Positions 5,770 to 57,611 are shown, counted from the stretch's first letter. The stretch is 64,000 bases of DNA from Nitrospiria bacterium (GCA_919901555.1 CAKKPG010000132.1:13957-77956); one strand, 5' to 3'. The notes: generated by a model from the sequence alone, not told the origin. Numbers and translations: made by a program.

Positions 5770-7020
5770 ATGGGCATCCTGGCAATGATACTTGCGGGCG
5801 GCAAGGGAGAACGCCTCCATCCCCTCACGCTCCATCGGGCAAAGCCCGCCGTCCCCTTCGGCGGCATCTACCGGATCATCGACTTTACCCTGTCCAACTG
5901 CATCAACTCCGGCATCCGCAAGATCGCGGTCCTCACCCAGTACAAGTCCATGTCCCTGGACAAGCACCTCCGCCTCGGGTGGAACTTCTTCTCCGGCGAG
6001 TTGAACGAGTACATCATCTCCGTCCCGCCCCAGCAGCGCGTCGGGGACAAATGGTACCAGGGCACGGCCGATGCCATCTACCAGAACATCTACATGATAG
6101 AAAAGGACGCGCCGGACCATCTCATGATCCTCGCCGGCGACCACGTCTACAAGATGGACTACGCGGAGATGTTCAGGTTCCACCGCGAGCAGCGGGCCGA
6201 CGCCACCGTGGCCGCCATCGAAGTGCCCGTCGCGCAGGCCTCTGCCTTCGGGATCATCGAGGTAGAGGAGGACTGCCGGATCATCGGCTTCGAGGAAAAG
6301 CCAAAAAAGCCGAAGTCCATCCCGGGCAGGCCGGACATGGCGTTCGCGTCCATGGGCATCTACCTCTTCAACACCCGGAAGATACTGGAACACCTCCGGT
6401 TCGACGCCCTCAGGGACACGTCCCATGACTTCGGCAGGAACATCATCCCCGAGATGATGAAGACCGCCCGTGTCTGCGCCTACAACTTCATCGACGAGAA
6501 CAGGAAGGCGGCAAAGTACTGGCGGGACGTGGGGACCATCGACGCCTACTGGGAGGCGAACCGGGACCTGGTGAGCGTGGACCCGCTCCTGAACCTCTAC
6601 GACCGGGCCTGGCCGATCCGCACCTACCAGGCGCAGAACCCGCCGGCCAAGTTCGTCTTCGCCCAGGAGAAGAAGGGCGGCAGGCTCGGCATCGCGTTGG
6701 ACTCCATCGTGGCCCCCGGCTGCATCGTGAGCGGCGGCCGGGTGCAGAACTCGGTGCTCTCGCCCAACGTGCGCGTCAACAGCTACAGCGAGGTATATGA
6801 TTCCATCCTGATGGAGAACGTGGACATCGGCAGGCACTGCCGGATCAAGCGGGCGATCATCGACAAGGACGTCACGATCCCGCCGGGGACCGAGATCGGC
6901 TACGACCTCGACGAAGACCGTACGCGGTTCCATGTCACTCCATCGGGGATCGTGGTGATCGGGAAAGGGACCGAGCTGTGCGAGAGCGAGATGGAGCTGA
7001 CCGACGAACCCGCGGCGTGA
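5770..7020 (+). CDS. glgC: Glucose-1-phosphate adenylyltransferase
   Basis: 416 aa, MILAGGKGERLHPLT... N-terminus (E. coli GlgC LAGGRGTRLKDLT-like), left-handed beta-helix C-terminus; overall length and motif fit. Confidence 0.9.
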   Translation: MGILAMILAGGKGERLHPLTLHRAKPAVPFGGIYRIIDFTLSNCINSGIRKIAVLTQYKSMSLDKHLRLGWNFFSGELNEYIISVPPQQRVGDKWYQGTADAIYQNIYMIEKDAPDHLMILAGDHVYKMDYAEMFRFHREQRADATVAAIEVPVAQASAFGIIEVEEDCRIIGFEEKPKKPKSIPGRPDMAFASMGIYLFNTRKILEHLRFDALRDTSHDFGRNIIPEMMKTARVCAYNFIDENRKAAKYWRDVGTIDAYWEANRDLVSVDPLLNLYDRAWPIRTYQAQNPPAKFVFAQEKKGGRLGIALDSIVAPGCIVSGGRVQNSVLSPNVRVNSYSEVYDSILMENVDIGRHCRIKRAIIDKDVTIPPGTEIGYDLDEDRTRFHVTPSGIVVIGKGTELCESEMELTDEPAA

Positions 7021-7092
7021 ACAAAAATTCATGATATACCGCCGAGGACGCCGAGTTGATAAAATCAAATGAAACAGGTTTTCTCTGCGGGT

Positions 7093-7388
7093 AACATTGA
7101 TGGTCTCGTAAAAAGTCGTCATACCCGCGAAAGCGGGTATCCAGAGTCCAGTCAACCATCTGAAAAAACTGGATTCCCGTTTTCACGGGAATGACGAAAA
7201 AGGGCGGTTACGGACTTTTTACGAGACCACCAACATTGATTCATTCGTAAAAAGTTCTAAAAGCCGTCTTTGCGAGCGAAGCGAAGCAATCTCGCAGTTC
7301 ATAACCGCCTGAAAAATCGAGATTGCCGCGTCGCTCCGCTCCTCGCAATGACGGCATAAGGGGCTTTTTACGAGACCATCACATTCAA
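7093..7388. repeat. Two adjacent MITE-like palindromic elements (7093-7241 and 7242-7388) with terminal inverted repeats TGGTCTCGTAAAAAGTC / GACTTTTTACGAGACC and internal hairpins
   Basis: Left and right ends are reverse complements. Internal hairpins acccgcgaaagcgggt and ttcccgttttcacgggaa. The same TIR recurs at 50926-51058. The element abuts the nitroreductase stop codon. Confidence 0.75.
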
Positions 7389-8011
7389 CCGATCACCCTC
7401 ACGATCTCTTCCAGCGGTTTTCTGCTCCTCGCCGGCGGGTCCTCATCGGGCGCCCCCACGGGCAGGAGCGCGGCGATGTACTTTTCCTTGCCGTAGCCCA
7501 ATAACTTCTCAAAGGCCTCCTGCGCCACCAGCGGCCCCGTCATCCAGCAGGACCCGTAGCCGAGGGCGTGGATCGCCAGAAGCATGTTCTGGATCGCCGC
7601 TGAAACGCTCTGCAAACCCGGATGAGGACGGAGACGCACGGCTTCTTCCTCGCTATATCCCATCCTCATCAGTAGGCCAGTTGACACGTATGATTCCATA
7701 ACAACGGCGATCACGACCGGAGCGTTCTCGAAGAAAACATAATAATTACTCTTATATGCCGTCAGCCGCTGGGCCTGTTTCTCGCTCTCGGCATAGGGGA
7801 CCATCCGGTCCACCATCTCCCGGACAGCCTCGGCCATCTTCTTGAGAAGCGCACGGTCTTTGATGACAATAAAACTCCACGGCTGGGCATTGTTTGCGCT
7901 CGGCGCAAGCCTCCCGGCATCTAGGATTTTCCTGATGTCCTCGTCAGGAACCGGCGTCTGCTTGAACCGGCGAATACTTTTTCTGCCCTTGATAGCGTCA
8001 AAGAGGTCCAT
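7385..8011 (-). CDS. Nitroreductase-family (NAD(P)H-flavin oxidoreductase) protein
   Basis: 208 aa; MDLFDAIKGRKSIRRFKQTPVPDEDIRKILDAGRLAPSANNAQPWSFIVI is a classic nitroreductase N-terminus. Confidence 0.85.
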   Translation of the reverse strand: MDLFDAIKGRKSIRRFKQTPVPDEDIRKILDAGRLAPSANNAQPWSFIVIKDRALLKKMAEAVREMVDRMVPYAESEKQAQRLTAYKSNYYVFFENAPVVIAVVMESYVSTGLLMRMGYSEEEAVRLRPHPGLQSVSAAIQNMLLAIHALGYGSCWMTGPLVAQEAFEKLLGYGKEKYIAALLPVGAPDEDPPARSRKPLEEIVRVIG

Positions 8012-8293
8012 AGTTTATCTCACCTTCCCGATCGGGAACCCCATGCCGCTGATCGATATTGTAGGATATTGCGCCCTTTTAAAGACCTTCTCCGCAAGCG
8101 CCGGCACTTCATTATCCACGAAAAGAATATCTCACACAATCCCTAACCCGGACAAGCCGGAATTGAAAATTGAAAATTGCAAAATTGCGGTAAAAATCAA
8201 GACATTAAAGAAATATTCTTTCCATTTTTTGAGAAGAATTTGATTTTTTAGTAACTAACTCATTCCATTTTCTCCCATTATCCAGGGCCTACG

Positions 8294-8632
8294 CTAAAAC
8301 AGGCTCATTATCACGCTTATAACAACGGAGATGATAATCAACGCGATCACGATCATGGCTATCATCATCATCCAGTGCGGACCGAATCTCACACCCTGAG
8401 GCTCTGCGGGCTCAGGCGAGATCGCCTTGTCGATTCGGGCGAAAAATTCGGACTTGGACGCGAGCAGTCGTATCAGCGCGAAGGCAGGGAGCACGCTGAA
8501 TAAAAGACCGAAAGCCGCGAAGAGCCATGCGCCGCTGGATTGCTGCGCGTTGACCGCAAGAGAGACCAGGTAAAAGCAGAACGCGGCTATTGCCGCGGAT
8601 AGCCCGGCGAACATCAGATAGAAAAACGACAT
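8294..8632 (-). CDS. Small hypothetical membrane protein (3-4 TM); start moved to MSFFYLMFAGL
   Basis: Hydrophobic segments; the upstream part of the 196-aa ORF overlaps the 340-aa gene and is unlikely to be translated. Confidence 0.45.
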   Translation of the reverse strand: MSFFYLMFAGLSAAIAAFCFYLVSLAVNAQQSSGAWLFAAFGLLFSVLPAFALIRLLASKSEFFARIDKAISPEPAEPQGVRFGPHWMMMIAMIVIALIIISVVISVIMSLF

Positions 8633-8687
8633 CTTCTTCACGAGAGCCTCCTTCCAGGATGAACGACAACCGTTTGCATGGAGCTTC

Positions 8688-9710
8688 TTATCGGCGGAAC
8701 TGGGAATTGAACACCGCCTCGATATGCGCGTAACGCTCCCGCAGCCGGGCCTCTTCCTTCCCGAGCCCCAGCGACCCGGCCAGTCCGATGGCCCTGGACA
8801 GATGGCCGAGCGCATCATCCCTGTCGTCCTTGGGATAGCTCGATTCGTACATCCTGTCGTATGCCTGCTCGGCCCGTTCAGCATGCTGTCGCAGTTCGCC
8901 CACCAGGGCCAGGTCGTGATGCTCCCCGATCAGGTCGCTCTCCCGGGCGCTTCGCGGCGTGCTGATGCAGTCATGGACAAACGGTTTGTTCCCGCCGGAA
9001 GCCGCCGGGCTGATAATGGCAAAATCGTAGTTATGTTCATGCCCAGCCTCCCGGATCACACCGGCAAGCTGATGGAGAGACACCGGGATCTCGAGCCTGA
9101 GTCCATCGTCGGACAGGTCGGCAATTACCGCGTCCAGGTCAATGCCGAGCGTACCGATGAGTACCGGATACACCTCGGTCAGCCCAAGCAGGAACGCCCT
9201 GAAAAGGGGCAGATCGCTCTCCTGGTTCAGAGGTTTGTCCCTGCGCCAGCTCACGCCCTGAATCGTGGACAAGTCAAAGGCGAAACTGATCAGCACCAGT
9301 TCCCCGGACGACAATTCGTGCAGGAAGAGCCTTGCGTCTCTCTTTCCTGCCAAATCCAGCCGGAGATCCAACGACAGAGCCCGGTACGTTTTGTTAGGAT
9401 AAACAGGATCGGGTATCCCCTCTTCGTAATCGTCTATCTGATGCTGGAATTCCCTGTCCGGCGCAGCTATTTCCACTCCAGAGGGAATGTTCAGCAGCTC
9501 CCTGAGGAAACTCTGGATAAAATAGCTGCGGTTGGGGGGGCCTGGCAGAACCCGTGGCGCGGCGATTTCCGATGCTGAAGGACTGCTACGCAATGCGCTG
9601 AGGAGCTGCTCGTTCAATTCTCCTTCGTAAGAACTGCTCGACAGGAGGATGCTCGCCATATAGCAGGTTTTGTACTGGGAGGCAGGCGCCCTGTCTTCTT
9701 GTTCTTGCAT
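8688..9710 (-). CDS. Hypothetical protein (340 aa), ~110 nt downstream of the WD40-caspase gene, same strand
   Basis: Long ORF in GC-rich DNA with no recognisable motif; operon context only. Confidence 0.5.
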   Translation of the reverse strand: MQEQEDRAPASQYKTCYMASILLSSSSYEGELNEQLLSALRSSPSASEIAAPRVLPGPPNRSYFIQSFLRELLNIPSGVEIAAPDREFQHQIDDYEEGIPDPVYPNKTYRALSLDLRLDLAGKRDARLFLHELSSGELVLISFAFDLSTIQGVSWRRDKPLNQESDLPLFRAFLLGLTEVYPVLIGTLGIDLDAVIADLSDDGLRLEIPVSLHQLAGVIREAGHEHNYDFAIISPAASGGNKPFVHDCISTPRSARESDLIGEHHDLALVGELRQHAERAEQAYDRMYESSYPKDDRDDALGHLSRAIGLAGSLGLGKEEARLRERYAHIEAVFNSQFRR

Positions 9711-9819
9711 GGTTATTGTGAGCTCCCCCGATGATCCCGGATCACGATTGCAGCGAGCCCTGCTTGTTTCGCGGCAGCGTATAGTCGCTGATCTTTTTCA
9801 ATGGAGGCATCCTCCTGCG

Positions 9820-12800
9820 TTATTGCACCTTCCCGATCGGGAAGTTCGCGCCGGTCTGGATCGTCGGCGTCTGCTGACGCTTGAAGACCTCTTCGGACAG
9901 CTTCGTCACCTGCTCTTCCACGTAGTCCGCGAGGCCCAGCACGGTGATGAACCCGTCCTTCTTGATGTCCGCCTTGCCCCGGAGCCCTTCCATCAACACA
10001 TAGGTGAAGAGACCATGCCCCTTGTACCCTTCGAGCGCCTGCTGGGTGTCGGATGATGCGGAAAAGACCGCGGAGCCGATGGCCCGCTGGAGAAGCTTCA
10101 CTGCTGTTGATTCCGTGAGCCCCCTCGTCTGCTGCAAGAGCGCGATCTGGAGTTCCTTGCCGCCCTTGCCTGCATTGCAGGTGTCGAGGATCACGACCTT
10201 CTTCTGGGCGGGAATGTTCCCGATGAGCTTGGCAAGATCCTTCTGCCCCATGGCGTCTTCGCCGATGTGCCGGGAGGACAGAAGAAGGACATTGCTCGTG
10301 AGCAGGAAATACTGTTCTTCGTTGTTCACCACGTCCACCACTCCGTGGGAGGCGTCGTAGAATACAAAGAGGTCGTTGGGCTTGATCTTCAGGCGAAGCT
10401 CTTCAAAGGCCTTGGTGATGGCCTCTTTGGTCGTCGCATCTGGCGTCGTGAGTATCCGAATATCGGTTTTCTCAAACAAAGGCGCCGCGGTCTTCTTCAA
10501 GGTCTCTGCAAATGCCGCAGCATCAGGCACGGCATAGGTCAGCGATATGGACTTATTCTTGTATTCGTTGATGCCTATGACAAGGGCGTAGAGGTCCGGC
10601 TTCCGGAGAAGCGCTTTGGAGATGACGGAAATCTTCGCCGGGTTCGACTCCATGGAATTCTCTTTGTTGAAAGCGACAGCCCTGATCTCGTTCTGCCCTT
10701 CTATGAGAGGAATGGTAAAGGAGAGGAGCTTCTCATTTGCCGTTTCCCTGCCTTTTACAATCACCCCTCTCGTCTCATTCGCCACCTGGGCGCCGTTGAG
10801 ATAGATATTCACATTTCCGATCCCGCCGCCGTTATCGATGATCTTCAAGGAAACGGTGATGCTGTCCTTGTCAATAATTTCTCCTGCAACGGGTGATACG
10901 ATCCAGACCGCGGGGGCCGGCTTTTTGACCAGGATATCGCCGAAGGTCTCGCCTTTAGGAACTTCCTTGCCGGCCAGGGCCAGTTGAACAAGCTCGGGGC
11001 GGTAGAACCTGGCATAGAACTGGTCTATGCTGTAGACATTATTGCCGATCCTTACGTTAAGGTTTTTTGCGCCGTTGGGAGAGGCATTGAAGTAGCCTTC
11101 CGGGGTAATGACGATCCATTCTCCATCGTCAAATGTAATCATCCGACAAAGTTCACTGCCCGTTGCCGCGTTCCAGATGATGCTTGCCCCTCCCCCGCCC
11201 GTAAGCGCATATCTGCCGTCAGGGCCGTAGGCTACTGAGAGGACGAAATCCGCACTCCCCTTGACCTTAAGTGTCCTGATCACCTTTCCCGTTGAGATGT
11301 CCCAAATCCTGGCAGTACCATCAAAACTCCCGGAAAACACATGCCTGCCGTCAGGGCTGAAAGATACGGATCGCACGATTCCGGCATGCCCCTTGAACGT
11401 CCGCACCTCTTTGCCCGAAGACACGTCCCAGAGCTTAAGGGTATTGTCGCCGCTTCCCGACAGCACAAAGCGGCCATCGGGGCTGAAGGCCGCGGAGTAA
11501 ACACCATCTGAATGACCCTGAAACGTCCTTATCTCCCTGCCCGTGGACACGTCCCAAAGCTTAAGGGTTTTATCATGACTTCCGGACAGTGCAAAGCGGC
11601 CATCGGGGCTGAAGACCGCAGATGAGATATGATTTGAGTGCCCCTTGAGTGTTTTCACCTCATTCCCGGTGGAAACATCCCAAAGCTTCAGAGTAGGATC
11701 ATCAAGCCGACCACCGGTCAGCACATATTTACCGTCAGGGCTGAAGGCGACTGCTTCGACATAGCTTTTAAGCCCAAGAAAAATCCGTGTCTCCTCGCCG
11801 GTAGAGATGTCCCAAATCTTGGGAGCTAAACTGCTTGCAGACAGCGCGTACCTGCCGTCGGGGCTGAAGTATGCAGAGAGCATCGCCTCATATCTGTGCC
11901 CAGTAATTGAATACTTATATCCTTTAAGCTTTCGCACTTCTTTGCCGGCTACTATGTCCCAAAGCACTATCTTGCTTGCATAGGTTGCGGACAGTACGTT
12001 TCTGCCGTCAGGGCTGAAGGAAACCGATGAAACGCCGCTTGCCTGTCCCCGGAACGTCCGCAGTTCCTCTCCTGTCGACAGGTCCCACAGTTTAATGGTA
12101 TGATCGAAACTCCCGGAGAGCGCATATCTGCCGTCAGGGCTGAAAGAAACTGATGAAATCCCGTTCTCATGCCCCTTCCCCTTGAACGACTGCATCTCAT
12201 TTCCGGTAGAAACATTCCAAAGCTTCAGTAGTGGTGTATAATCATCATTCCGACCACCGATCAGCGCATATTTACCGTCGGGGCTGAAAACGACTGCGTT
12301 GACGCCGCCATGCCCAAGAAACCTCCGTGTCTCCACGCCGGCTGCAACGTCCCACAACCTGGCGGTTTTATCCTTACTCCCGGAAAGCGCAAATCTGCCG
12401 TCGGGGCTGAAAGAAACTGCCTTGACCTCATCTGAATGCCCCGAAAACGTCTTAATAGATGTTCCTGTACGCACGTCCCACAGCTTGATGGTTTTATCAC
12501 TGCTTCCCGTCAGCGCGAATTTACCGTCGGGGCTGAACGTTACGGCTGTAACATCATTTATATGCCCTTTCAGTGTTCTTACCAGCATCCCCGTTGAAAC
12601 ATTCCACAGCCTGACGGTAGTGTCCCAGCTTCCCGACAGCGCGAATTTGCCGTCGGGGCTGAAGGATACGGATATGACCGAGTCGACATGTCCGCCGAGT
12701 GTCCGCACGGCTCTGCCGTTTGACACGTCCCACAGTATGAGCGTTTTATCTGAACTCCCGGAGAGCGCATATCTCCCATCGGGACTGAAGGTTGCAGAAT

Positions 12801-13110
12801 TTACCCAATCTGAGTGCCCGTGTAACGTCCGAATCTCCCTGCCCGTAGACACGTCCCAAAGCTTCAGCGTTTTGTCCCAACTCCCGGACAAGGCATACCT
12901 GCCGTCCGGACTGAAGGCTACGGAGCTGACAAATCCTGAATGCCCCATCTGCACAAAGACTTCCGGCCCCTGATTTATGCGCTCCGGGGCGGGCTTTTCA
13001 CCGGCATACGCCGTGTTTCCGGGCAGGGAAATGCAGGCCATCATTATGGCCAAGGACCATATGATAATTGCTCTCTTTTGGAATAATCGCATCGAGCGAA
13101 ACATGATCAT
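9820..13110 (-). CDS. Secreted WD40-repeat protein (~14 blades, two predicted 7-bladed propellers) with C-terminal caspase-like peptidase C14 domain
   Basis: 1096 aa; N-terminal signal peptide ([31 protein letters not shown]); ~14 repeats of FSPDGR(Y/F)[23 protein letters not shown]; C-terminal 300 aa [13 protein letters not shown]...YDASHG...[10 protein letters not shown] (caspase His/Cys dyad context). Nucleotide-level tandem repeats show up as the shadow ORF 12299..12973. Confidence 0.85.
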
Positions 13111-13974
13111 CTCCCGGTTTTCACAACCACCTTGTCCTCAAAGAACTCCGAGGCTGCTGCGGAGGCGTTCTTGCTGTCCGTCTTTTCCGCCAGCTTGATC
13201 CCTCTCGTCTTCATCCCAATGTCGCGCGTCTGTGTCTTCACCTGATATACCCCGCCCTGGGCTTCGGTGCTGATCTCTCCAAGAGGCGATGAGCTCGCAT
13301 ACACGATGACGTTTTCTTCACCAAAGGGCGGGCTTACTTCCAGATCGAACTTGTCGTTCCCTGCAGGGATCTCGTAGACCGACCCGCCGTTGAAATAATT
13401 CTCCGCGCGATACGGATTGGGCAAAAGCTGGAGCGTCTCACCGCTCGCATCCTTATACAGAACACGGGCATAAAAGGGCTTGTTTCCCCTGATGTAGACC
13501 TTGATCTTCTCTCCGGTCTTATATTCCTTCTTGTCCGTCCAGGCCTTGACCTTTAAGGGGGCTGACGGGTCGTCGCTGAACCGGGTGTCCCTTGACAGGG
13601 TCTCCATTGCCTTTACATCGGGGATGATCTCCGCCTTGATCTTTATCTTGCAGCAATCGCCTGATGAGGGGTCCTTGTACCAGGACTTATCCAGCTCCTG
13701 GATGATCTTCACCTCTGCGTTTGCATATGCTGAAAGAAGGTCCTTCTCAAGCTCGAAGTTCTTGACGTGCGTTTCGCTTTTGATGTAGGTCGACGCGAAC
13801 TCGACGGCCCTTTTCTTGGCGTCGGCAAGGGCCGCCTGCTCGGTCTGCTTCCTGGACTTGTCATCCCCCATGCATGCATTACCGTCGGCTTCGGTGATGG
13901 TGGATTGCGCGGCATAGGCTGGCGTAAAGAGAACCAGAAACATGAGCACGATCAACGGAATAGGGGATTTCATA
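13107..13974 (-). CDS. Secreted/lipoprotein with DUF4384-like C-terminal domain (a domain family usually fused to or adjacent to bacterial caspases); 4-nt ATGA overlap with the WD40-caspase gene
   Basis: Signal peptide [21 protein letters not shown] preceded by GGAGG; C-terminal [42 protein letters not shown] resembles DUF4384. Start chosen at the internal ATG with SD rather than the ORF-track start at 14042. Confidence 0.6.
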
Positions 13975-14325
13975 CAGGACCTCCTCAAGAGTATGGCCGT
14001 ATTGTCAAGAATTAACCACAGAGCACACAGAGAAATCATCAAAACTCAAAATGTTGAAGGCTCTTTACCGGCCTCCCCCTCTGTGTCCTCTTACTACAGC
14101 ATTTATTTCGTTTTCTGCATTCTTCACATTTCCAAAAAAGGTCTTATTATCATGTCGGTTGAGAACACTGAGCACACCTCCGTGCTCTCTGTGGTTTCAT
14201 GCTGTGCCTCTCTTTTTTCATGAAACTTTTGACACTACCAGTATGGTGCTCATGGTGTTCTCGTAGAGCGCGCGAGCTGTAGTGAGACAAGTATTACAGA
14301 AGGGTCTGTTGGACGTCAAGGGAAG

Positions 14326-14540
14326 ATTCGCTGGGGGCGCATGGGGCATGGAGCATAGGGCATGGGGCATGGGGCATAGAGTAGATTCTCTTCCCTCTTC
14401 ACTCTTCACTCTTCCCTCTTCCCTCTTCCCTCTTACCTCTTCCCTCTGCTCTCTTCCCTCTGCTCTCTTCCCTCTGCGCTCTGCGCTCTTCCCTCTTCCC
14501 TCTTCCCTCTTCCCTCTTCCCTCTTCCCTCTGCGCTTTTC
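14326..14540. repeat. Compound simple-sequence repeat: (GCATGGGG/GCATAGGG)x~5 followed by (CTCTTCC)n with CTCTGCG/CTCTGCT variants, ~30 units
   Basis: gcatggggcatggagcatagggcatggggcatggggcatagag ... ctcttccctcttccctcttccctcttacctcttccctctgctc... read directly. Lies between the aroG 3' end and the promoter region of the DUF4384/WD40-caspase operon. Confidence 0.85.
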
Positions 14541-15568
14541 TAAACCATCCCCGCCAAATCCCGAATAAGCTTCTCCGAGTCCTTCCACCCCAGGCAGGGG
14601 TCGGTGATGGACTTGCCGTATACGTTCTCCGTCACCTTCTGCGCCCCTTCCTCGATAAAGCTCTCGATCATGAATCCCCTGATCATGTCCTTGAGCAGGG
14701 CGGAATGCCGGCGGCTCTGCATCACTTCCATGGCGATACGGGGCTGTTCGGCGAACTTCTTGTCGGAGTTGGCGTGGTTCGTGTCAACGATGATGGTGGG
14801 GTTGGCCAGACACCGCTTCTTGTATGCCTCGGCAAACCAGATGAGATCTTCATAATGATAGTTCGGGACCGTCACGCCGTGCGGATCAACGGCGCCCCGC
14901 AGCACCGCGTGGGTGAGGGGGTTGCCGGCGGTCTTCACTTCCCACCGGTTGTAGCTGAAGGTATGGGGCGCCTGGGAGGCCTGGATGGAATTGAGCGTCA
15001 CTTCCCTGTCGCCCGAGGTCGGATTTTTCATGCCCACGGGAATGTCCAGTCCGCTGCACGTGAGGCGATGGGCCTGGTTCTCCACGGAGCGGGCGCCCAC
15101 GGCCACGTAGCTCAGCACGTCCTCGAGATAGGGATAGTTCCCGGGGTAGAGCATCTCGTCGGCCGCGGGAAGGTATGATTCCTTGAGCGCGCGGATGTGC
15201 ATTTTCCTGATGGCCTTGAGGCCCTCGACGATGTTCGGCTCTTCCTGGGGATTGGGCTGATGGGCCATGCCCTTGTACCCGATGCCCGTGGTGCGCGGCT
15301 TGTTGGTGTAGATGCGCGGGATGATGATGATCGTGTCCTTTACCTCCGCCTGGACCTTCGCCAGCCGGGAAATATAGTCGCACACGGCGTCTTCGTCATG
15401 GGCCGAGCAGGGCCCGATGACGAGCAGGAACTTTCCGCTCTCGCGGGTAAACACGCCCTTGATGTCAAGATCGCGCTTTTTCTTGATCTCGACCAGGTCC
15501 TGGGAAAGCGGCATGGCCCCAAGGATTTCCTTGGGTTTCGGGATCTCCCGGATATATTCAAAGCTCAT
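14540..15568 (-). CDS. aroG: 3-deoxy-7-phosphoheptulonate (DAHP) synthase, class I-alpha
   Basis: 342 aa; VIGPCSAHDEDA, PRTTGIGYKGM, GARSVENQAHRL, TNHANSDK align motif-for-motif with E. coli AroG. Confidence 0.9.
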   Translation of the reverse strand: MSFEYIREIPKPKEILGAMPLSQDLVEIKKKRDLDIKGVFTRESGKFLLVIGPCSAHDEDAVCDYISRLAKVQAEVKDTIIIIPRIYTNKPRTTGIGYKGMAHQPNPQEEPNIVEGLKAIRKMHIRALKESYLPAADEMLYPGNYPYLEDVLSYVAVGARSVENQAHRLTCSGLDIPVGMKNPTSGDREVTLNSIQASQAPHTFSYNRWEVKTAGNPLTHAVLRGAVDPHGVTVPNYHYEDLIWFAEAYKKRCLANPTIIVDTNHANSDKKFAEQPRIAMEVMQSRRHSALLKDMIRGFMIESFIEEGAQKVTENVYGKSITDPCLGWKDSEKLIRDLAGMV

Positions 15569-15829
15569 AGGTTTTTGAAGCCTCCTTCACGCTGCATGGT
15601 TGTGCTCGAGAGTGGTATGCAGTATAAAATCCAAGGGAGCGCAAGTCAAGCCCAAAAGCGGGAGCGGGAGAAGTGAAAGCGCTGTCGGACACCAAGGGCT
15701 CTTCCCCTTGCGGGGCAAATCTCGGCACGCCCTGCGCAACGGTGAACAGGATGCCTGTCGGCATATCGGCGGATTTCCGCCAAAAAATCACTGGTTTTTT
15801 TTCCGGTAATATTGTATAAAGGTCGTGCC

Positions 15830-16729
15830 ATGGCCAAAAGAAAATCAAAGAAGGGCAGCCGGTATGACCAATGGATCGCCGCGGGGATCGTCATAACCCT
15901 GGCGGCCATCGTGCTCTATCTGTGGGGGCCGCTGCACACCTTCAAGGGGGCCAGGGAGGAAAAACGTCAGCCGGAGATAAAGAAGCTGGTGCCGCCTCCG
16001 AAACGCAGGCTTGCCCAGGAGCGGAAAGAGGCTGAGAAGCACAAACCCGCGGGCGCGGAAAAGGCCGCCGTCATCGCCGTGGTGATCGACGACCTGGGCC
16101 AGGATCTGATGCCTGCCCGCGAACTCCTCGCGCTGCCCTACAAGATCACCCTTGCCGTCATGCCCGGACTGCCCCAGTCGAAAAAGATCGCCGAGCTGGC
16201 AAAGCAGAGCGATCGCGAGGTCCTGCTCCACCTGCCCATGGAGCCGAAAAACCGGAACGGTAAGCGCGAGGCCTTCGGCACGCTGCGCTCGGACATGACG
16301 CCCATGGAATTCATGGCCGCCATCAGCGCGGACATTGATGCCGTGCCCGGCGCCGCGGGGGTGAACAACCACGAAGGCTCGGCATTGACCGAAAACAGCG
16401 AGGCCATGAAGTTCCTCATGGCGGAGCTGAAGGCACGCGGCCTCTTCTTCCTCGACAGCCTCACCAATCCCCGGAGCATTGCCTATTCCACGGCAAAGGA
16501 CTTCGGGCTGAAAGCCGCAAAGCGGGATGTCTTCATCGACAATGAGAGCAACAGTCCCGCCGCCATAGGGGCCCAGCTCGACGAGCTCGCGCGCATTGCC
16601 AGGAAACGCGGCTCAGCCATCGGGATAGGGCACCCTCACCCGGCCACCATGAGCGAGCTGAAGAAATGGCTCGCAACGCTCGACGAACAGGGGATCGAGA
16701 TCGTCCCGGTGTCACGGCTGGTGAAATAA
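15830..16729 (+). CDS. Divergent polysaccharide deacetylase family protein (YibQ-like) with N-terminal TM anchor
   Basis: MAKRKSKK..TM..; HLPMEP...NNHEGS...GIGHPHP motif pattern of divergent polysaccharide deacetylases; first ATG at 15830 (ORF track starts at a TTG 18 nt earlier). Confidence 0.7.
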   Translation: MAKRKSKKGSRYDQWIAAGIVITLAAIVLYLWGPLHTFKGAREEKRQPEIKKLVPPPKRRLAQERKEAEKHKPAGAEKAAVIAVVIDDLGQDLMPARELLALPYKITLAVMPGLPQSKKIAELAKQSDREVLLHLPMEPKNRNGKREAFGTLRSDMTPMEFMAAISADIDAVPGAAGVNNHEGSALTENSEAMKFLMAELKARGLFFLDSLTNPRSIAYSTAKDFGLKAAKRDVFIDNESNSPAAIGAQLDELARIARKRGSAIGIGHPHPATMSELKKWLATLDEQGIEIVPVSRLVK

Positions 16730-33980: not shown

Positions 33981-34067
33981 TGGTGCCGAAGGGGGGACTC
34001 GAACCCCCACGGGAATACTCCCACTGCGCCCTGAACGCAGCGCGTCTACCAGTTCCACCACTCCGGC
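33981..34067 (-). tRNA. tRNA-Leu (anticodon CAG), 87 nt with long variable arm, CCA encoded
   Basis: Reverse complement gccggagtggtggaactggtagacgcgctgcgttcagggcgcagtgggagtattcccgtgggggttcgagtcccccttcggcacca: 7-bp acceptor stem, D-arm, anticodon stem ctgcg/cgcag with loop ttCAGgg, long extra arm, T-arm GGTTCGAGTCC. Confidence 0.85.
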
Positions 34068-54401: not shown

Positions 54402-57400
54402 ATGCAAAGAATGAAAGTGCTGGTTAAAAAAGCTGGTTTCGGTTTGATTGGATTGATGGTATTCCTGATTGTTGCAAGCATGGCCATCGCAGAGGAAAGG
54501 ACGCTCGATGGACCGATCCGGGAGGTGGTAAACAGCGCAAAAGCCCGGACACTGGATGCAGCAGGCGGGGGAGCGATCGTACAGTCCGCCGTCGTCGACA
54601 GACTGAATCGCGGCGAGGAGACTGTCGACGTCATCGTTCTCCTGAAAGGATACAAAGAGTATGTCGGAAAGATCAAGGCGGACAAATCGGCGGAAATGAA
54701 GAAGTTTCAGGCGGAGATTCGTCCCAGGCAGGATGCTGTCCTGAAGCGGCTCAGCCGGTCCCAGTTCACGCCGAAGCATCGCTTCGACAATATTCTCGGC
54801 TTTGCCGGAACGGTCAGCAGGGACGGCCTTGAGGCGCTCGCGGCAATGCAGGAGGTCGAGTCCATTGAGGAAGACCAGAAAGTCGAGGCCCATCTGGCCC
54901 AGGGCATTCCCCTGATGAACGGATCTCATGTGCGGTCGTCCTATGACGGCGCCGGAGTATCAATTGCAATTACGGATACCGGCATCGATTACACGCACCC
55001 GATGCTCGGCGGCGCGGCCTTTCCCAATGCCAAGGTGATCGGCGGATATGACTTCGGCGACAGCGACGCCGACCCCATGGACTGCCAGGGACACGGCACC
55101 TCGGTGGCCGGGATTGCGGCCGGGACAGCCGCAGCCGGACCGGGCGACTACATCGGCGGTGTGGCCCCTAACGCGAGGCTGTACGCCCTGAAGATCGTCG
55201 CCGGCTGCAGTGGTTCGTCTGCCTTTTCGACCATCGCGGCTGCCTGGGACTGGGCGGTATCGCACAAAAATGACGACCCTGCCAACCCGATCCTGGCGAT
55301 CAACACGAGTTTCGGCGGCGGATACTACACCGCGGCCTGCGATGCCTCCATACCGACGATTGCTGCCGCTGCCAATAACGCGGCCGCGAACGGAATCACG
55401 CTCTTTTCGTCATCAGGAAATGACGGCTTTTCCGACGGCATGGGCGCGCCTGCCTGTGTATCGAATTCCCTTTCCGTGGGCGCCGTATACGATGCGAACA
55501 TCGGTTCCCGATACTGGTCCCCCTGCACCGACCTGATGACGGCGCCTGACCAGGTTACGTGTTATTCCAACAGCGCCAATTTTCTGAATATCCTGGCGCC
55601 GAGCAACGACGCCTACACCACGGCGGTCGGCGGCGGATACCGGACGAATTTTGGCGGCACGTCGGCAGCATCCCCCTATTCAGCCGGGGCCGGGGCTGTT
55701 TTGCAGAGCTACGCCAAAAAAACGGCAGGACATTACTACAGCGCGGCAGAGTTGAGGGCGCGCCTGATCAGCACCGGAGACCCGGTCATTGATCCGAAGA
55801 ACGGGATCACGAAACCGCGCGTGAACATCGGCGTTGCCGCAGTCCAGCTTGAACAGACACCGTGGAAGACGAACGAGAACGGCACGGTCGCGACCGATGT
55901 CGCCTGGAATTACACCATGGGATATCATTTTACTCCTGTCAAAGACGGCCATATCCGCTGGCTGGGCGGATACTTTAACGGGACCAAGACCGTCTCTCTC
56001 TGGAACAAGGCGACGGGAGCGCTGCTCGCATCGGCCGTGGTGACATCCTCCAACGGATGGGGCTATACGGCTATCAAGGCAGTGCCCGTCACCGCGGGAA
56101 CCACCTATACCGTGGCCGTGTATCTCGGCGGGAGCGGCGGGAGCTATCGATACAACATTGCTCCCCTCCCCGACACCTACGGCGACGTCACGATAAACGG
56201 CTCAACGTATATTGCCGGAAATGCGCGGCCGACGAACACCTACACCACCTATATGTTCGGCCAGGCGGACTTCGGCTATGTGCCGGCTTCCGTGCAGACG
56301 CCGTGGCTCACGAACGAGAACGGCACGCTCGTGACCGATATCGCATGGGATTACACCATGGGATACAACTTTACCCCTCGTAAAGACGGACAGATCACGA
56401 GGCTCAGCGGGTATTTCAACGGCGCCAAAACCGTCTCGCTCTGGAATAAGGCGACCGGTGAACTGCTGGCACAGCAGAACGTAACGTCGAGCAACAACTG
56501 GAGCTCTGTTGATATCGACCCCGTGCTCTTAAACGCCGGCGTCACCTATACCGTGGCCGTCTACCTGGGAGGGAGCGGCGGAAGCTATCGGTCCGGCATT
56601 GCCGCATTTCCGCAGACCTACGGGGACATCACAATCGAAGGCTCTGCGTGGCTTTTCGGCAACGGCCGGCCGACCAATAATTATGCATCCATAATGTACG
56701 GCCAGGTCGACGTCGGTTTCTCCGCCTTCTCCGGCCAGACGCCCTGGAAGCGAAATGAGAACGGCACACTCGTAACGGATATTGCCTGGGATTACACCAT
56801 GGGATACCACTTTACGCCCAAGCGAAGCGGCACCATCACGTGGCTCGGCGGATATTTCAACGGGACCAAAACGGTTTATCTCTGGAACAAATCCACAGGC
56901 GCCCTGCTCGCACAGGCAACGGTGTCGTCAGCCAACGGTTGGGGGTATGCCAATATCGATCCCGTGCGCGTAACGGCCGGGACGACCTATACCGTGGCCG
57001 TCTATCTGGCCGGAAGCGGCGGAAGCTATCGATACAGCATCACCGCATTGCCGCAGACCTATGGAGACATCACCATTGAAGGCACGACATGGCTCGTCGG
57101 GAACGGAAGACCTACCATCGACTATGCTTACAACATGTACGGCCAGATGGACATCGGGTTTGTCCCCGACAGCAGTCAGACGCCGTGGATGAACAACGAG
57201 AACGGCACGCTGGTAACGGATATCGCCTGGGATTATACGATGGGATATCATTTCATACCGGCGAGAAATGGGACCATTTCGAGACTAGGCGGGTATTTCA
57301 ACGGCGCGAAGACCGTCTCTCTCTGGGACACCGCCACGGGAACGCTGCTCGCCCAGGCGCCGGTGACCTCCTCCAACGCCTGGAGCTATGTGGGAATATC

Positions 57401-57611
57401 TCCGGTCTCCGTGACGGCCGGGACGACTTACACGGTGGCCGTCTATCTGGGGGGGGGCGGCGGGAGCTATCGGTACGGAATTTCGACGTTCCCCCAGACG
57501 TACGAAGACGTCACAATCACCGGTTCAACGTGGCTGTCCGGCAACGGGCGGCCCACGAATACGATAACGACGTACATGTACGGCCAGGTCGACGTGGAGT
57601 TTGAGCCGTAG
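54402..57611 (+). CDS. Secreted subtilisin-like serine peptidase (S8) with propeptide and four C-terminal ~147-aa tandem repeat domains
   Basis: 1069 aa; signal peptide; catalytic triad contexts AITDTGID (Asp), HGTSVAG (His), GGTSAASP (Ser); four repeats starting QTPW(K/L/M).NENGT.VTDIAW.YTMGY.FTP..G.I..L.GYFNG.KTVSLWN..TG.LLA...V.S.N.W...I.PV.V.AG.TYTVAVYLGGSGGSYR..I...P.TYGD.TI.GS.W..GNGRPT (nucleotide period ~441 bp; 55854-57608). Confidence 0.85.
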   Translation: MQRMKVLVKKAGFGLIGLMVFLIVASMAIAEERTLDGPIREVVNSAKARTLDAAGGGAIVQSAVVDRLNRGEETVDVIVLLKGYKEYVGKIKADKSAEMKKFQAEIRPRQDAVLKRLSRSQFTPKHRFDNILGFAGTVSRDGLEALAAMQEVESIEEDQKVEAHLAQGIPLMNGSHVRSSYDGAGVSIAITDTGIDYTHPMLGGAAFPNAKVIGGYDFGDSDADPMDCQGHGTSVAGIAAGTAAAGPGDYIGGVAPNARLYALKIVAGCSGSSAFSTIAAAWDWAVSHKNDDPANPILAINTSFGGGYYTAACDASIPTIAAAANNAAANGITLFSSSGNDGFSDGMGAPACVSNSLSVGAVYDANIGSRYWSPCTDLMTAPDQVTCYSNSANFLNILAPSNDAYTTAVGGGYRTNFGGTSAASPYSAGAGAVLQSYAKKTAGHYYSAAELRARLISTGDPVIDPKNGITKPRVNIGVAAVQLEQTPWKTNENGTVATDVAWNYTMGYHFTPVKDGHIRWLGGYFNGTKTVSLWNKATGALLASAVVTSSNGWGYTAIKAVPVTAGTTYTVAVYLGGSGGSYRYNIAPLPDTYGDVTINGSTYIAGNARPTNTYTTYMFGQADFGYVPASVQTPWLTNENGTLVTDIAWDYTMGYNFTPRKDGQITRLSGYFNGAKTVSLWNKATGELLAQQNVTSSNNWSSVDIDPVLLNAGVTYTVAVYLGGSGGSYRSGIAAFPQTYGDITIEGSAWLFGNGRPTNNYASIMYGQVDVGFSAFSGQTPWKRNENGTLVTDIAWDYTMGYHFTPKRSGTITWLGGYFNGTKTVYLWNKSTGALLAQATVSSANGWGYANIDPVRVTAGTTYTVAVYLAGSGGSYRYSITALPQTYGDITIEGTTWLVGNGRPTIDYAYNMYGQMDIGFVPDSSQTPWMNNENGTLVTDIAWDYTMGYHFIPARNGTISRLGGYFNGAKTVSLWDTATGTLLAQAPVTSSNAWSYVGISPVSVTAGTTYTVAVYLGGGGGSYRYGISTFPQTYEDVTITGSTWLSGNGRPTNTITTYMYGQVDVEFEP

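Follow-up and report, generated by a model that had tools for sequence, protein, structure and literature searches.

Discussion of bacterial caspase homologues has, to our knowledge, dealt almost exclusively with cytoplasmic proteases of cell death or defence. Here we describe a locus in a 64,000-nucleotide stretch of DNA from a Nitrospiria bacterium (GCA_919901555.1, CAKKPG010000132.1:13957-77956; hereafter the window, with positions counted from its first letter) in which a gene for a predicted secreted DUF4384 protein, g1, overlaps a gene for a predicted exported protease, g2, that carries fourteen WD40 blades and a C-terminal caspase domain. The systems with which g2 can be compared include the orthocaspases and metacaspases of family C14B (Microcystis MaOC1, T. 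brucei MCA2, yeast Yca1 and Geobacter GSU0716), which like g2 have a Peptidase_C14 domain with a caspase fold and a His-Cys dyad. They also share with g2 the acidic S1 residues (Asp863 and Asp976-x-Cys in g2) that predict Arg/Lys specificity, and orthocaspases process themselves in the loop after the catalytic Cys, where g2 has a conserved Arg. Unlike in these enzymes, the protease domain of g2 forms the very end of the chain and is preceded by a signal peptide, 14 WD40 blades, a linker and an immunoglobulin (Ig)-like domain; the whole protein is predicted to be exported. Caspase-type proteases are likewise joined to WD40 repeats, with paralogue expansion and variable loci, in the cytoplasmic caspase-NACHT/NB-ARC-WD40 (STAND) proteins and the caspases associated with EACC1 in bacterial conflict systems. 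However, the domain order of g2 is reversed relative to these proteins, and g2 has secretion signals and neither an NTPase nor an effector-associated domain (EAD) or EACC1 adaptor. It scored 70.2 bits against the model for EACC1-associated caspases (NF047832), whose cutoff is 140, and we found no EACC1-like gene in its neighbourhood.

Closer to the pairing of g1 with g2 is Craspase (type III-E CRISPR, Csx29/Csx30), in which a clan-CD protease on a repeat scaffold also has a small dedicated partner encoded next to it. A C-terminal DUF4384 domain occurs in some of the Csx30 proteins, the substrates of the CHAT protease of Craspase, and homologues of g1 likewise pair with TPR-CHAT proteins. In contrast to Craspase, both g1 and g2 carry secretion signals, activation by RNA would be impossible in the periplasm, and the analogy is one of logic only. 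No Cas7-11, CRISPR array, Csx31 or RpoE was found in the window: the open reading frames (ORFs) around the cassette include no Cas-like protein and positions 7000-16000 no CRISPR-like array, the remaining window not having been scanned for either, and no ORF in the 64 kb matched the CHAT or TPR profiles.

The gingipains of Porphyromonas (C25) and clostripain (C11) are, as g2 is predicted to be, secreted or surface cysteine proteases of caspase fold with Arg/Lys specificity. In gingipains an Ig-like domain adjoins the protease as in g2, and the carriers are anaerobes, where an extracytoplasmic thiol protease stays reduced. However, g2 has no C25 or C11 match and no C-terminal domain of the type IX secretion system, its Ig-like domain precedes the catalytic domain, and neither its WD40 propellers nor its g1 partner has a counterpart in these enzymes. 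Operons of a gasdermin and a caspase-like protease resemble g1-g2 in that a repeat-containing protease lies beside a protein possibly cut near its C-terminus, but g1 and its downstream neighbours g3 and g4 match no gasdermin model and g1-g2 is predicted to be extracytoplasmic. The likeness of g1 to the macroglobulin (MG) domains of alpha-2-macroglobulin and complement, including the periplasmic bacterial form, may be generic; g1 has a single sandwich and no thioester domain. By analogy, g1-g2 would work most like a secreted clan-CD protease of the gingipain kind combined with a protease-substrate pair such as Csx29-Csx30.

The locus consists of four ORFs, all on the minus strand and flanked by a 3-deoxy-D-arabinoheptulosonate 7-phosphate (DAHP) synthase gene and a nitroreductase gene:

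13107..13973, minus strand: g1, 288 aa; signal peptide, Lpp20/FlgT_N-like domain, DUF4384 domain and conserved C-terminal tail
9820..13110, minus strand: g2, 1096 aa; signal peptide, 14 WD40 blades, linker, Ig domain and caspase (C14) domain
8688..9710, minus strand: g3, 340 aa; soluble orphan protein, accessory
8294..8641, minus strand: g4, 115 aa; three predicted transmembrane segments, lineage-specific

The features of g2, with arrows marking predicted cleavage here and below, are as follows:

13003..13110, minus strand: signal peptide, aa 1-36 (...LPGNTAYA↓GEKP)
11131..12957, minus strand: fourteen WD40 blades, forming two 7-bladed propellers
10921..11130, minus strand: post-propeller linker module of ~70 aa (...FYRPELV), with columns conserved in 99 homologues
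10618..10911, minus strand: Ig-like (Big_7) beta-sandwich with a conserved E-T-R781-G loop
9853..10590, minus strand: Peptidase_C14 domain of caspase/metacaspase fold
10345..10347, minus strand: catalytic His922 (YDASHG), invariant and aligned to the SGHGT His of T. brucei MCA2 in a profile alignment
10177..10179, minus strand: catalytic Cys978 (LDTCNAG) with Asp976 two residues earlier, D-T-C being invariant in 57 sequences
10120..10128, minus strand: T995-R996-G997, candidate autoprocessing site between the p20-like and p10-like parts

An original prediction, made from the DNA alone, had described g2 as about 14 WD40 blades in two propellers followed by a C14 caspase domain, and our searches bear this out. 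The protein contains 14 FSPDG...LWD units about 42 aa apart on inspection of the sequence, with a 126-nt period in the DNA at 11396-11695 within the WD40-coding region, and it matches Pfam WD40 at E=3.8e-150. Residues 841-1086 match Pfam PF00656 at E=7.9e-17 (62.1 bits against a gathering score of 21.4), and both of the dyad contexts named at the outset, YDASH(922)G and ILDTC(978)NAG, are present. That description had missed two modules, namely the linker, which is modelled as short strands and helices (predicted local distance difference test score, pLDDT, 76-90) and belongs to no Pfam family, and the Ig domain, which matches Pfam Big_7 at E=1.8e-6 and forms strands at 95-192 of the AlphaFold2 model of the C-terminus. 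No NCBIfam model was matched above cutoff, including the EACC1-type model, and the propeller has a weak likeness to TolB and Dpp5-type propellers, all far under cutoff. The g2 N-terminus has no regular lipobox: an atypical MMAC lies within the hydrophobic core, and close homologues keep AxA↓xEKPE instead.

We found that the last 457 residues of g2 were modelled by AlphaFold with a mean pLDDT of 82, and a Foldseek comparison with the PDB placed MALT1, GSU0716 (3bij), fungal metacaspases and animal caspases on top (E down to 2.7e-10, probability 1.0, target template modelling score, TM-score, about 0.6). A single-sequence search of the PDB with the same region found no relative, and the g2 profile reached T. 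brucei MCA2 at E~0.01 only. By profile, fold and dyad motifs, g2 is a member of peptidase family C14, clan CD. The motifs SH(922)G and DTC(978)NAG are invariant in 57 sequences, His922 and Cys978 are kept in at least 95% of 99 homologues, and the invariant Asp863 aligns with Asp95 of TbMCA2 in a profile alignment. Homologues with as little as 45% identity (57-99 sequences compared) keep the His, the Cys and both S1 Asp residues with few or no exceptions, which argues that the family is under selection for catalysis. We take Asp976-x-Cys978 to be the D-x-C arrangement of metacaspases such as MCA2 and Yca1, and Asp863 together with it presumably corresponds to the acidic S1 pocket of these Arg/Lys-specific enzymes. 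This pattern suggests that g2 cleaves after Arg (or Lys).

Using the C-terminal module of g2 as the family query, we found matches in at least 475 proteins among 8,000 candidates scored, and in an exhaustive HMMER search of representatives of clusters at 50% identity it matched 3,204 at E<=1e-30, mostly about 1,050-1,150 aa in length, and 15,283 at E<=1e-10. An exported caspase-WD40 protein with a C-terminal protease is thus not the rarity it had been taken for. The module stands at the extreme C-terminus in nearly all of the best 150 representatives, most of which are 1,000-1,150 aa long, and at 76 genome loci the family falls into length classes of about 770, 1,100 and 1,400 aa, which correspond to one, two and three propellers, the two-propeller form of ~1,100 aa being the commonest class of the family. 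The best 120 word-indexed matches, all of <=800 aa, had suggested that the 1,096-aa, two-propeller length of g2 was unusual; we dropped this idea given the ~1,100- and ~1,400-aa ORFs at the loci and the lengths of the top HMMER representatives. Members are labelled 'caspase family protein' by NCBI, and their genes often lie in tandem arrays of up to five at the 76 loci. Carriers include Syntrophales/Smithella, Geobacter, Desulfobacterales, Nitrospirota, Holophaga, spirochaetes, Gallionella and Rhodocyclales, with Propionivibrio dicarboxylicus DSM 5885 (L075) as a cultured example, and these mostly anaerobic or microaerophilic hosts fit an extracytoplasmic thiol protease.

Nearly every full-length homologue starts with a secretion signal, of either signal peptidase I (SPI) type or canonical lipobox type. 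The SPI-type homologues read AxA↓(A/S/G)EKPE(I/V)FVQ(L/M)GH, so that the first blade (EKPEIFVQLGH) directly follows the signal, while others have a canonical lipobox such as FLSSC↓AATP, with true lipoboxes in many one-propeller paralogues of other genomes. Because nearly all homologues carry such signals, export is a conserved property of the family rather than a quirk of g2, in agreement with the predicted export of the protein. A 2012 survey (PMC3501461) pointed out a helix at the N-terminus of many prokaryotic metacaspases, probably a signal peptide, speculated on an extracellular role, and found the density of metacaspases to be highest in Nitrospirae. Our literature search found no paper on the g2-type architecture or a g1-type partner, and no experimental work on the exported WD40-caspase family was found in the literature searched. 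The family comprises thousands of predicted exported caspase-fold proteases on WD40 propellers that are abundant in anaerobic groundwater and sediment bacteria.

The tandem arrays are seen at loci of the Syntrophales/Smithella type (L006, L007, L011, L013-L016, L027, L030, L031, L043, L044, L051 and L067), where 2-5 WD40-caspase paralogues of one to three propellers each are interleaved with genes for large ankyrin-repeat proteins, TPR-CHAT proteins and TPR proteins with a g1-type N-terminal domain, and with small orphan genes of three recurring sizes (about 150, 180 and 274 aa). Radical-SAM/SPASM genes (~400 aa, some duplicated) lie a few kb downstream of the arrays at L007, L027, L030 and L043, accompanied by conserved ORFs of about 130 and 300 aa, and these neighbours may represent a peptide-modification cluster.

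The features of the partner protein g1 are:

13911..13973, minus strand: signal peptide of signal-peptidase-I type, aa 1-21, cleavage before AQS (PAYA↓AQS)
13614..13910, minus strand: N-terminal alpha/beta domain, Lpp20/FlgT_N-like, with Cys34 and Cys107
13284..13526, minus strand: DUF4384 domain, a macroglobulin-like beta-sandwich
13200..13211, minus strand: K-T-R257-G, candidate cleavage or recognition site, R257 being invariant in 50 homologues

The g1 protein passes the Pfam threshold for DUF4384 (PF14326) with 87.1 bits against a cutoff of 27 (E=8.4e-25), covering profile positions 1-81 of 81, as had been anticipated for its C-terminal half. It had also been called a lipoprotein; the signal peptide stands, but the lipoprotein assignment is ruled out since the cleavage region PAYA↓AQS has no lipobox Cys, and in 20-50 homologues the hydrophobic core and the xYA↓AQS after it are conserved, position +1 never being Cys. 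The AlphaFold2 model of g1 (mean pLDDT 80, predicted TM-score 0.73) consists of the alpha/beta N-domain, the DUF4384 beta-sandwich, a helix at 249-256, a disordered stretch at 263-271 and a final strand. The N-domain matches Pfam FlgT_N at E=3.5e-4 (21.5 bits, under the cutoff of 28.8) and resembles Lpp20 HP1456 (5ok8) in Foldseek with a probability of 0.97, a weak E-value of 1.3e-2 and a target TM-score of 0.43, while a profile search of PDB sequences with g1 gave insignificant matches only. Cys34 and Cys107 are invariant in 50 sequences and probably form a disulfide. With one MG-like sandwich only and no Pfam match to the alpha-2-macroglobulin family, g1 is not a member of that family; judging from the model, the MG-likeness may be just that of a generic sandwich fold, which is still notable in a protein tied to a protease.

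We next consider how regularly g1 accompanies a protease. Among 77 loci found with the caspase as seed, 17 have a g1-type gene (Lpp20-like plus DUF4384) within 10 kb. Conversely, 14 metagenome loci found with g1 as seed extend at least 3.5 kb to either side of it. A caspase gene stands within 1.5 kb of g1 in 10 of these and a TPR protein accompanies g1 in two more, which leaves two loci where neither is present; many further g1-protease pairs occur on short contigs. Adjacent pairs are on the same strand in 42 of 43 cases, separated by anything between -4 and a few hundred nt, and the protease may stand upstream or downstream of g1. The ATGA at 13107-13110, noted in the original prediction, joins the g1 stop to the g2 start and is kept in the nearest genome of a species-level collection, Nitrospirae bacterium GWC2_57_13 (L002), and in a contig of the Hainich H41 groundwater metagenome (L078), which is 99.9% identical to the window and carries the same four genes. 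This near-identity places the origin of the window in a groundwater Nitrospirota population. Orthologues of g1 remain 61-89% identical to g1 of the window while the adjoining protease ranges from 90% down to 27%, and some adjoin a TPR-CHAT protein that cannot be aligned with g2 and that has a signal peptide or lipobox too. DUF4384 is documented elsewhere as fused to caspases and to other proteases (PMC7475262; bioRxiv 10.1101/2022.08.17.504292), and the proposal that it is here encoded in trans agrees with these recurrent pairs. Judged by gene neighbourhood, g1 is a genuine and recurrent partner of exported proteases, and the conserved unit is g1 plus an exported clan-CD protease, with g3 and g4 as lineage-specific passengers or accessories. 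What had been a vague four-gene 'operon' is thereby narrowed to a two-protein module with named residues: Cys978, Arg781 and Arg996 of g2 and Arg257 of g1.

At one further locus (L139, 1411-3543), the caspase ORF beside a g1 homologue has an N-terminus that resembles, by eye, a formylglycine-generating enzyme (FGE)-sulfatase domain, which suggests that g1 also pairs with an FGE-sulfatase-caspase architecture.

A short motif is common to both partners. In g2, with its 1,096 residues, the tripeptide TRG appears at exactly two places, and in g1 at one; its residues are almost invariant in the families: R781 in 98/99 and R996 and G997 in 99/99 g2 homologues, and R257 in 50/50 g1 homologues. The consensus around R781 is D-T-R-G-V-K-(I/V) and that around R257 of g1 is K-T-R-G-(V/I)-K-(L/I); in the g1 family TRG[VI]K[LI] is dominant, and TRG is found in the tail of 83 of 93 ORFs. 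In 91 of 130 family ORFs the R996 site follows the catalytic Cys motif at a distance of 17-19 aa, the place at which caspases and orthocaspases are processed between their large and small subunit parts. In the C-terminal model of g2, R996 falls within the segment of lowest confidence (354-372) and R781 at a low-pLDDT segment (142-147), and R257 of g1 is just ahead of the low-pLDDT segment 263-271. Read from the sequences, these sites suggest that TRG is the preferred site of the protease, in its own loops and in its partner g1. TRG self-processing loops as a general trait of g1-associated proteases are not supported, being missing from divergent caspases and most CHAT partners.

Taken together, g1 and g2 may well form a two-gene extracytoplasmic protease module in which g1 is bound and cut by g2, a reading to which we give an even chance. 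At its core the original prediction, which proposed an exported and as yet uncharacterised system of protease and scaffold with the DUF4384 module encoded in trans, is right. In this model g2 would be exported by Sec into the periplasm or cell envelope, where it would act as a metacaspase/orthocaspase-type C14 cysteine protease cutting after Arg (or Lys). The double WD40 propeller would recruit protein targets or ligands, and the Ig-like spacer would carry the catalytic domain. The enzyme is probably produced in zymogen form and matures by self-cleavage in two invariant T-R↓G loops, at R781 in the Ig domain and at R996 past the catalytic Cys. Translationally coupled to g2 and secreted, g1 would be its dedicated partner, its Lpp20-like domain and macroglobulin-like DUF4384 sandwich presenting K-T-R257↓G-(V/I)-K-(L/I), which matches the consensus of the Ig loop of g2. 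Bound and cut at R257, g1 could be a substrate or effector of the module or a bait-type regulator, and g3 and g4 would be lineage-specific additions outside the core.

Several observations weigh against this model. TRG is a short motif, and the pattern was defined after viewing the sequences. R257 lies at the end of a predicted helix and not in the disordered stretch itself. Most of the divergent caspases and all but one of the TPR-CHAT partners have no TRG loops, and g1 keeps its TRG beside all of them; the strong conservation of g1 beside swapped proteases would suit a generic regulator, chaperone or anchor equally well. Further, 60 of the 77 family caspase loci have no g1 within 10 kb, and the under-cutoff NCBIfam match leaves g2 without a named subfamily.

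In the main alternative, which we consider possible though on balance unlikely, g1 serves exported caspase-fold proteases in general as an accessory and is not itself cut. It could act as an inhibitor or immunity protein, silencing the protease within the envelope of the cell that makes it, or as a chaperone for maturation, or its Lpp20-like domain could tether the protease to the outer membrane or peptidoglycan. The steady g1 sequence beside partners that diverge to 27% identity or are replaced by TPR-CHAT proteins would suit recognition of a shared clan-CD feature or an envelope site, the ATGA coupling suggests stoichiometric co-production, and the macroglobulin-like fold, the Lpp20/FlgT_N-like N-domain and the absence of TRG loops from most CHAT partners point the same way. 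However, MG-like sandwiches are generic scaffolds that are not inhibitory in themselves, g1 has no thioester and no multi-MG architecture, and most family proteases have no g1 nearby. The invariant TRG[VI]K[LI] of g1 moreover matches the protease's own loop, for which recognition by the active site is the easier explanation. It is improbable, in our view, that g2 is a secreted digestive or scavenging protease whose propellers filter substrates in the manner of prolyl-oligopeptidase or DPP-IV, with g1, g3 and g4 as unrelated neighbours. Such a role would agree with the export signals, the weak sub-cutoff likeness to TolB and Dpp5-type propellers and the expansion into tandem arrays in Syntrophales and Smithella, but the repeats are canonical WD40 units of the protein-protein interaction type, two further domains separate the propellers from the catalytic domain, and the linkage to g1 is strong, same-strand and at times overlapping. 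The neighbours, too, are repeat-scaffold proteins (TPR-CHAT, ankyrin) and not transporters or peptidase clusters.

We assign very little chance to a cytoplasmic suicide or anti-phage caspase of the STAND/NACHT-WD40 or protease-gasdermin style, a role that the original prediction had left open and that would require the N-terminal hydrophobic segments to have been misread. PADLOC returned generic 'caspase' and 'HEAT-ARM_XIII' domain matches on g2, and the weak NCBIfam match to the EACC1-associated caspase type, the variable chromosomal position and a GC content below that of the flanks would fit as well; yet PADLOC identified no defined defence system and nothing significant on g1, g3 or g4, and the EACC1-type score of 70 is only half the cutoff of 140. 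The locus lacks an NTPase, a gasdermin, EACC1 and any effector-associated domain, g3 and g4 match nothing, signal peptides or lipoboxes are family-wide with the mature N-terminus beginning right at the first blade, and g1 is itself secreted, with a conserved Cys pair. It seems similarly far-fetched that g2 is a non-catalytic scaffold or adhesin that uses its caspase fold for binding only. Pseudo-orthocaspases are common, and the dyad was conserved in only 57% of Nitrospirae metacaspases in the 2012 survey (PMC3501461), but in the g2 family the His, the Cys and both S1 Asp residues hold across the homologues described above. Given the WD40 repeats, the family-wide signals, the missing NTPase, gasdermin and adaptor, and the invariant active site, the digestive, suicide or defence, and non-catalytic readings are less likely.

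The module reading can be extended, more speculatively, to a pathway that we regard as distinctly unlikely as a whole: g1 would be the conserved effector of a periplasmic sensor-protease system in which swappable proteases, either WD40-caspases of one to three propellers or TPR-CHAT proteins, each use their repeat domains to sense a different envelope signal, invader or neighbour-cell protein and then cut g1 at T-R↓G. If so, cleavage would free or expose some activity of the Lpp20-like/macroglobulin-like body of g1, and anaerobic Nitrospirota and Desulfobacterota would widely possess an extracytoplasmic equivalent of Craspase-Csx30 or protease-gasdermin signalling. Since a single DUF4384 protein of high conservation is found beside exported clan-CD proteases that differ greatly from one another, we hypothesize that DUF4384 is an envelope protease substrate or regulator.

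Comparison of the same chromosomal position in related genomes, the interval between the DAHP synthase and nitroreductase genes, bears on the extent of the module:

Window and L078: g1, two-propeller caspase, g3, g4
GWC2_57_13 (L002): g1, two-propeller caspase, g4
Nitrospirota metagenome-assembled genome L041: g1, one-propeller lipoprotein caspase
L081 (3.25-Mb genome): empty, with a g1 + TPR-CHAT pair about 7 kb away

A conserved four-gene neighbourhood, part of the original prediction, is not borne out: in a tblastn search of the first 77 loci, g3 was found in L001 only, as a shorter relative, and g4 in L002 only, while both are present in L078. A clean 985-bp indel removes window positions 8707-9691, almost exactly the g3 coding region, at L002 6643-6645; since 19 nt of each g3 end remain there, g3 was deleted in L002 and is dispensable. 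The L002 copy of g4 is 90% identical, and L078 also has a 115-aa gene at this place. After the four genes, the window and L078 continue alike with nitroreductase, glgC and nuoE-like genes. The GC content of the cassette region (8001-14000) is 0.54-0.55 and that of its flanks 0.58-0.61, which, together with the empty or differently filled interval in related genomes, is consistent with a variable or exchanged island.

Neither g3 nor g4 matched anything in Pfam, NCBIfam or PADLOC. The two had been described as membrane proteins; this is ruled out for g3, which has no signal peptide and a single marginal hydrophobic stretch, and it holds for g4, which has three hydrophobic segments predicted to span the membrane. 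Only 24 relatives of g3 were found in the database, in clusters of hypothetical genes that at times include CHAT, TPR, ankyrin, YdjM and extracytoplasmic function (ECF) sigma genes.

Some gene boundaries also differ from those first proposed. The ribosome-binding site GAGGAGG lies 6 nt before an ATG at 13973, and because of this spacing we place the g1 start there instead of at the TTG at 14042. The protein read from this ATG has 288 aa and is 100% identical to an NCBI entry, 'DUF4384 domain-containing protein [Nitrospirota bacterium]'. For g2, an in-frame ATG at 13104 (Met3) has a better GGGAG spacing than the ATG at 13110. Downstream gaps of about 110 nt had been proposed, which is right for g2-g3 (109 nt) and wrong for g3-g4: a GGAAGGAGG ribosome-binding site 5 nt ahead of a GTG at 8641 makes this the most likely g4 start, so that the gap is 46 nt and the protein probably has 115 aa in place of 112. 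The g2-g3 spacer contains a 22-codon ORF, MPPLKKISDYTLPRNKQGSLQS, at 9755-9823, directly after an AGGAGG, and its translation is doubtful given the zero spacing.

Upstream of g1, a non-coding block of 126 nt (14242-14367) is 90% identical to L002, while coding DNA nearby is ~81-84% identical, and it contains one promoter-like element:

14290..14319, minus strand: candidate sigma-70-type promoter TTGACG-N18-AATACT, a consensus match from a consensus scan

This element would yield a 5' leader of ~310 nt for g1, and the block matched no Rfam family. The stretch from the DAHP synthase stop to the g1 promoter region contains two adjoining heptanucleotide tandem arrays (14339-14531), which read, on the plus strand, (CTCTTCC) x20.6 at 14388-14531 and (GCATGGG) x5.6 at 14339-14377. 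Contig L078 maps with ~13 fewer CTCTTCC copies, but it begins within the array and this may be an assembly artefact. Downstream of g4 there is a short AATTGAA x3.7 repeat at 8161-8187.

Across the whole 64-kb window we found no second caspase, CHAT or DUF4384 gene, and the sole Rfam match was one tRNA gene (33984-34067, minus strand). An ORF of ~1,070 aa at 54402-57611 on the plus strand has a weak match (E=5e-5) to a WD40 profile built from the caspase family and, judged by this match, is possibly another beta-propeller protein.

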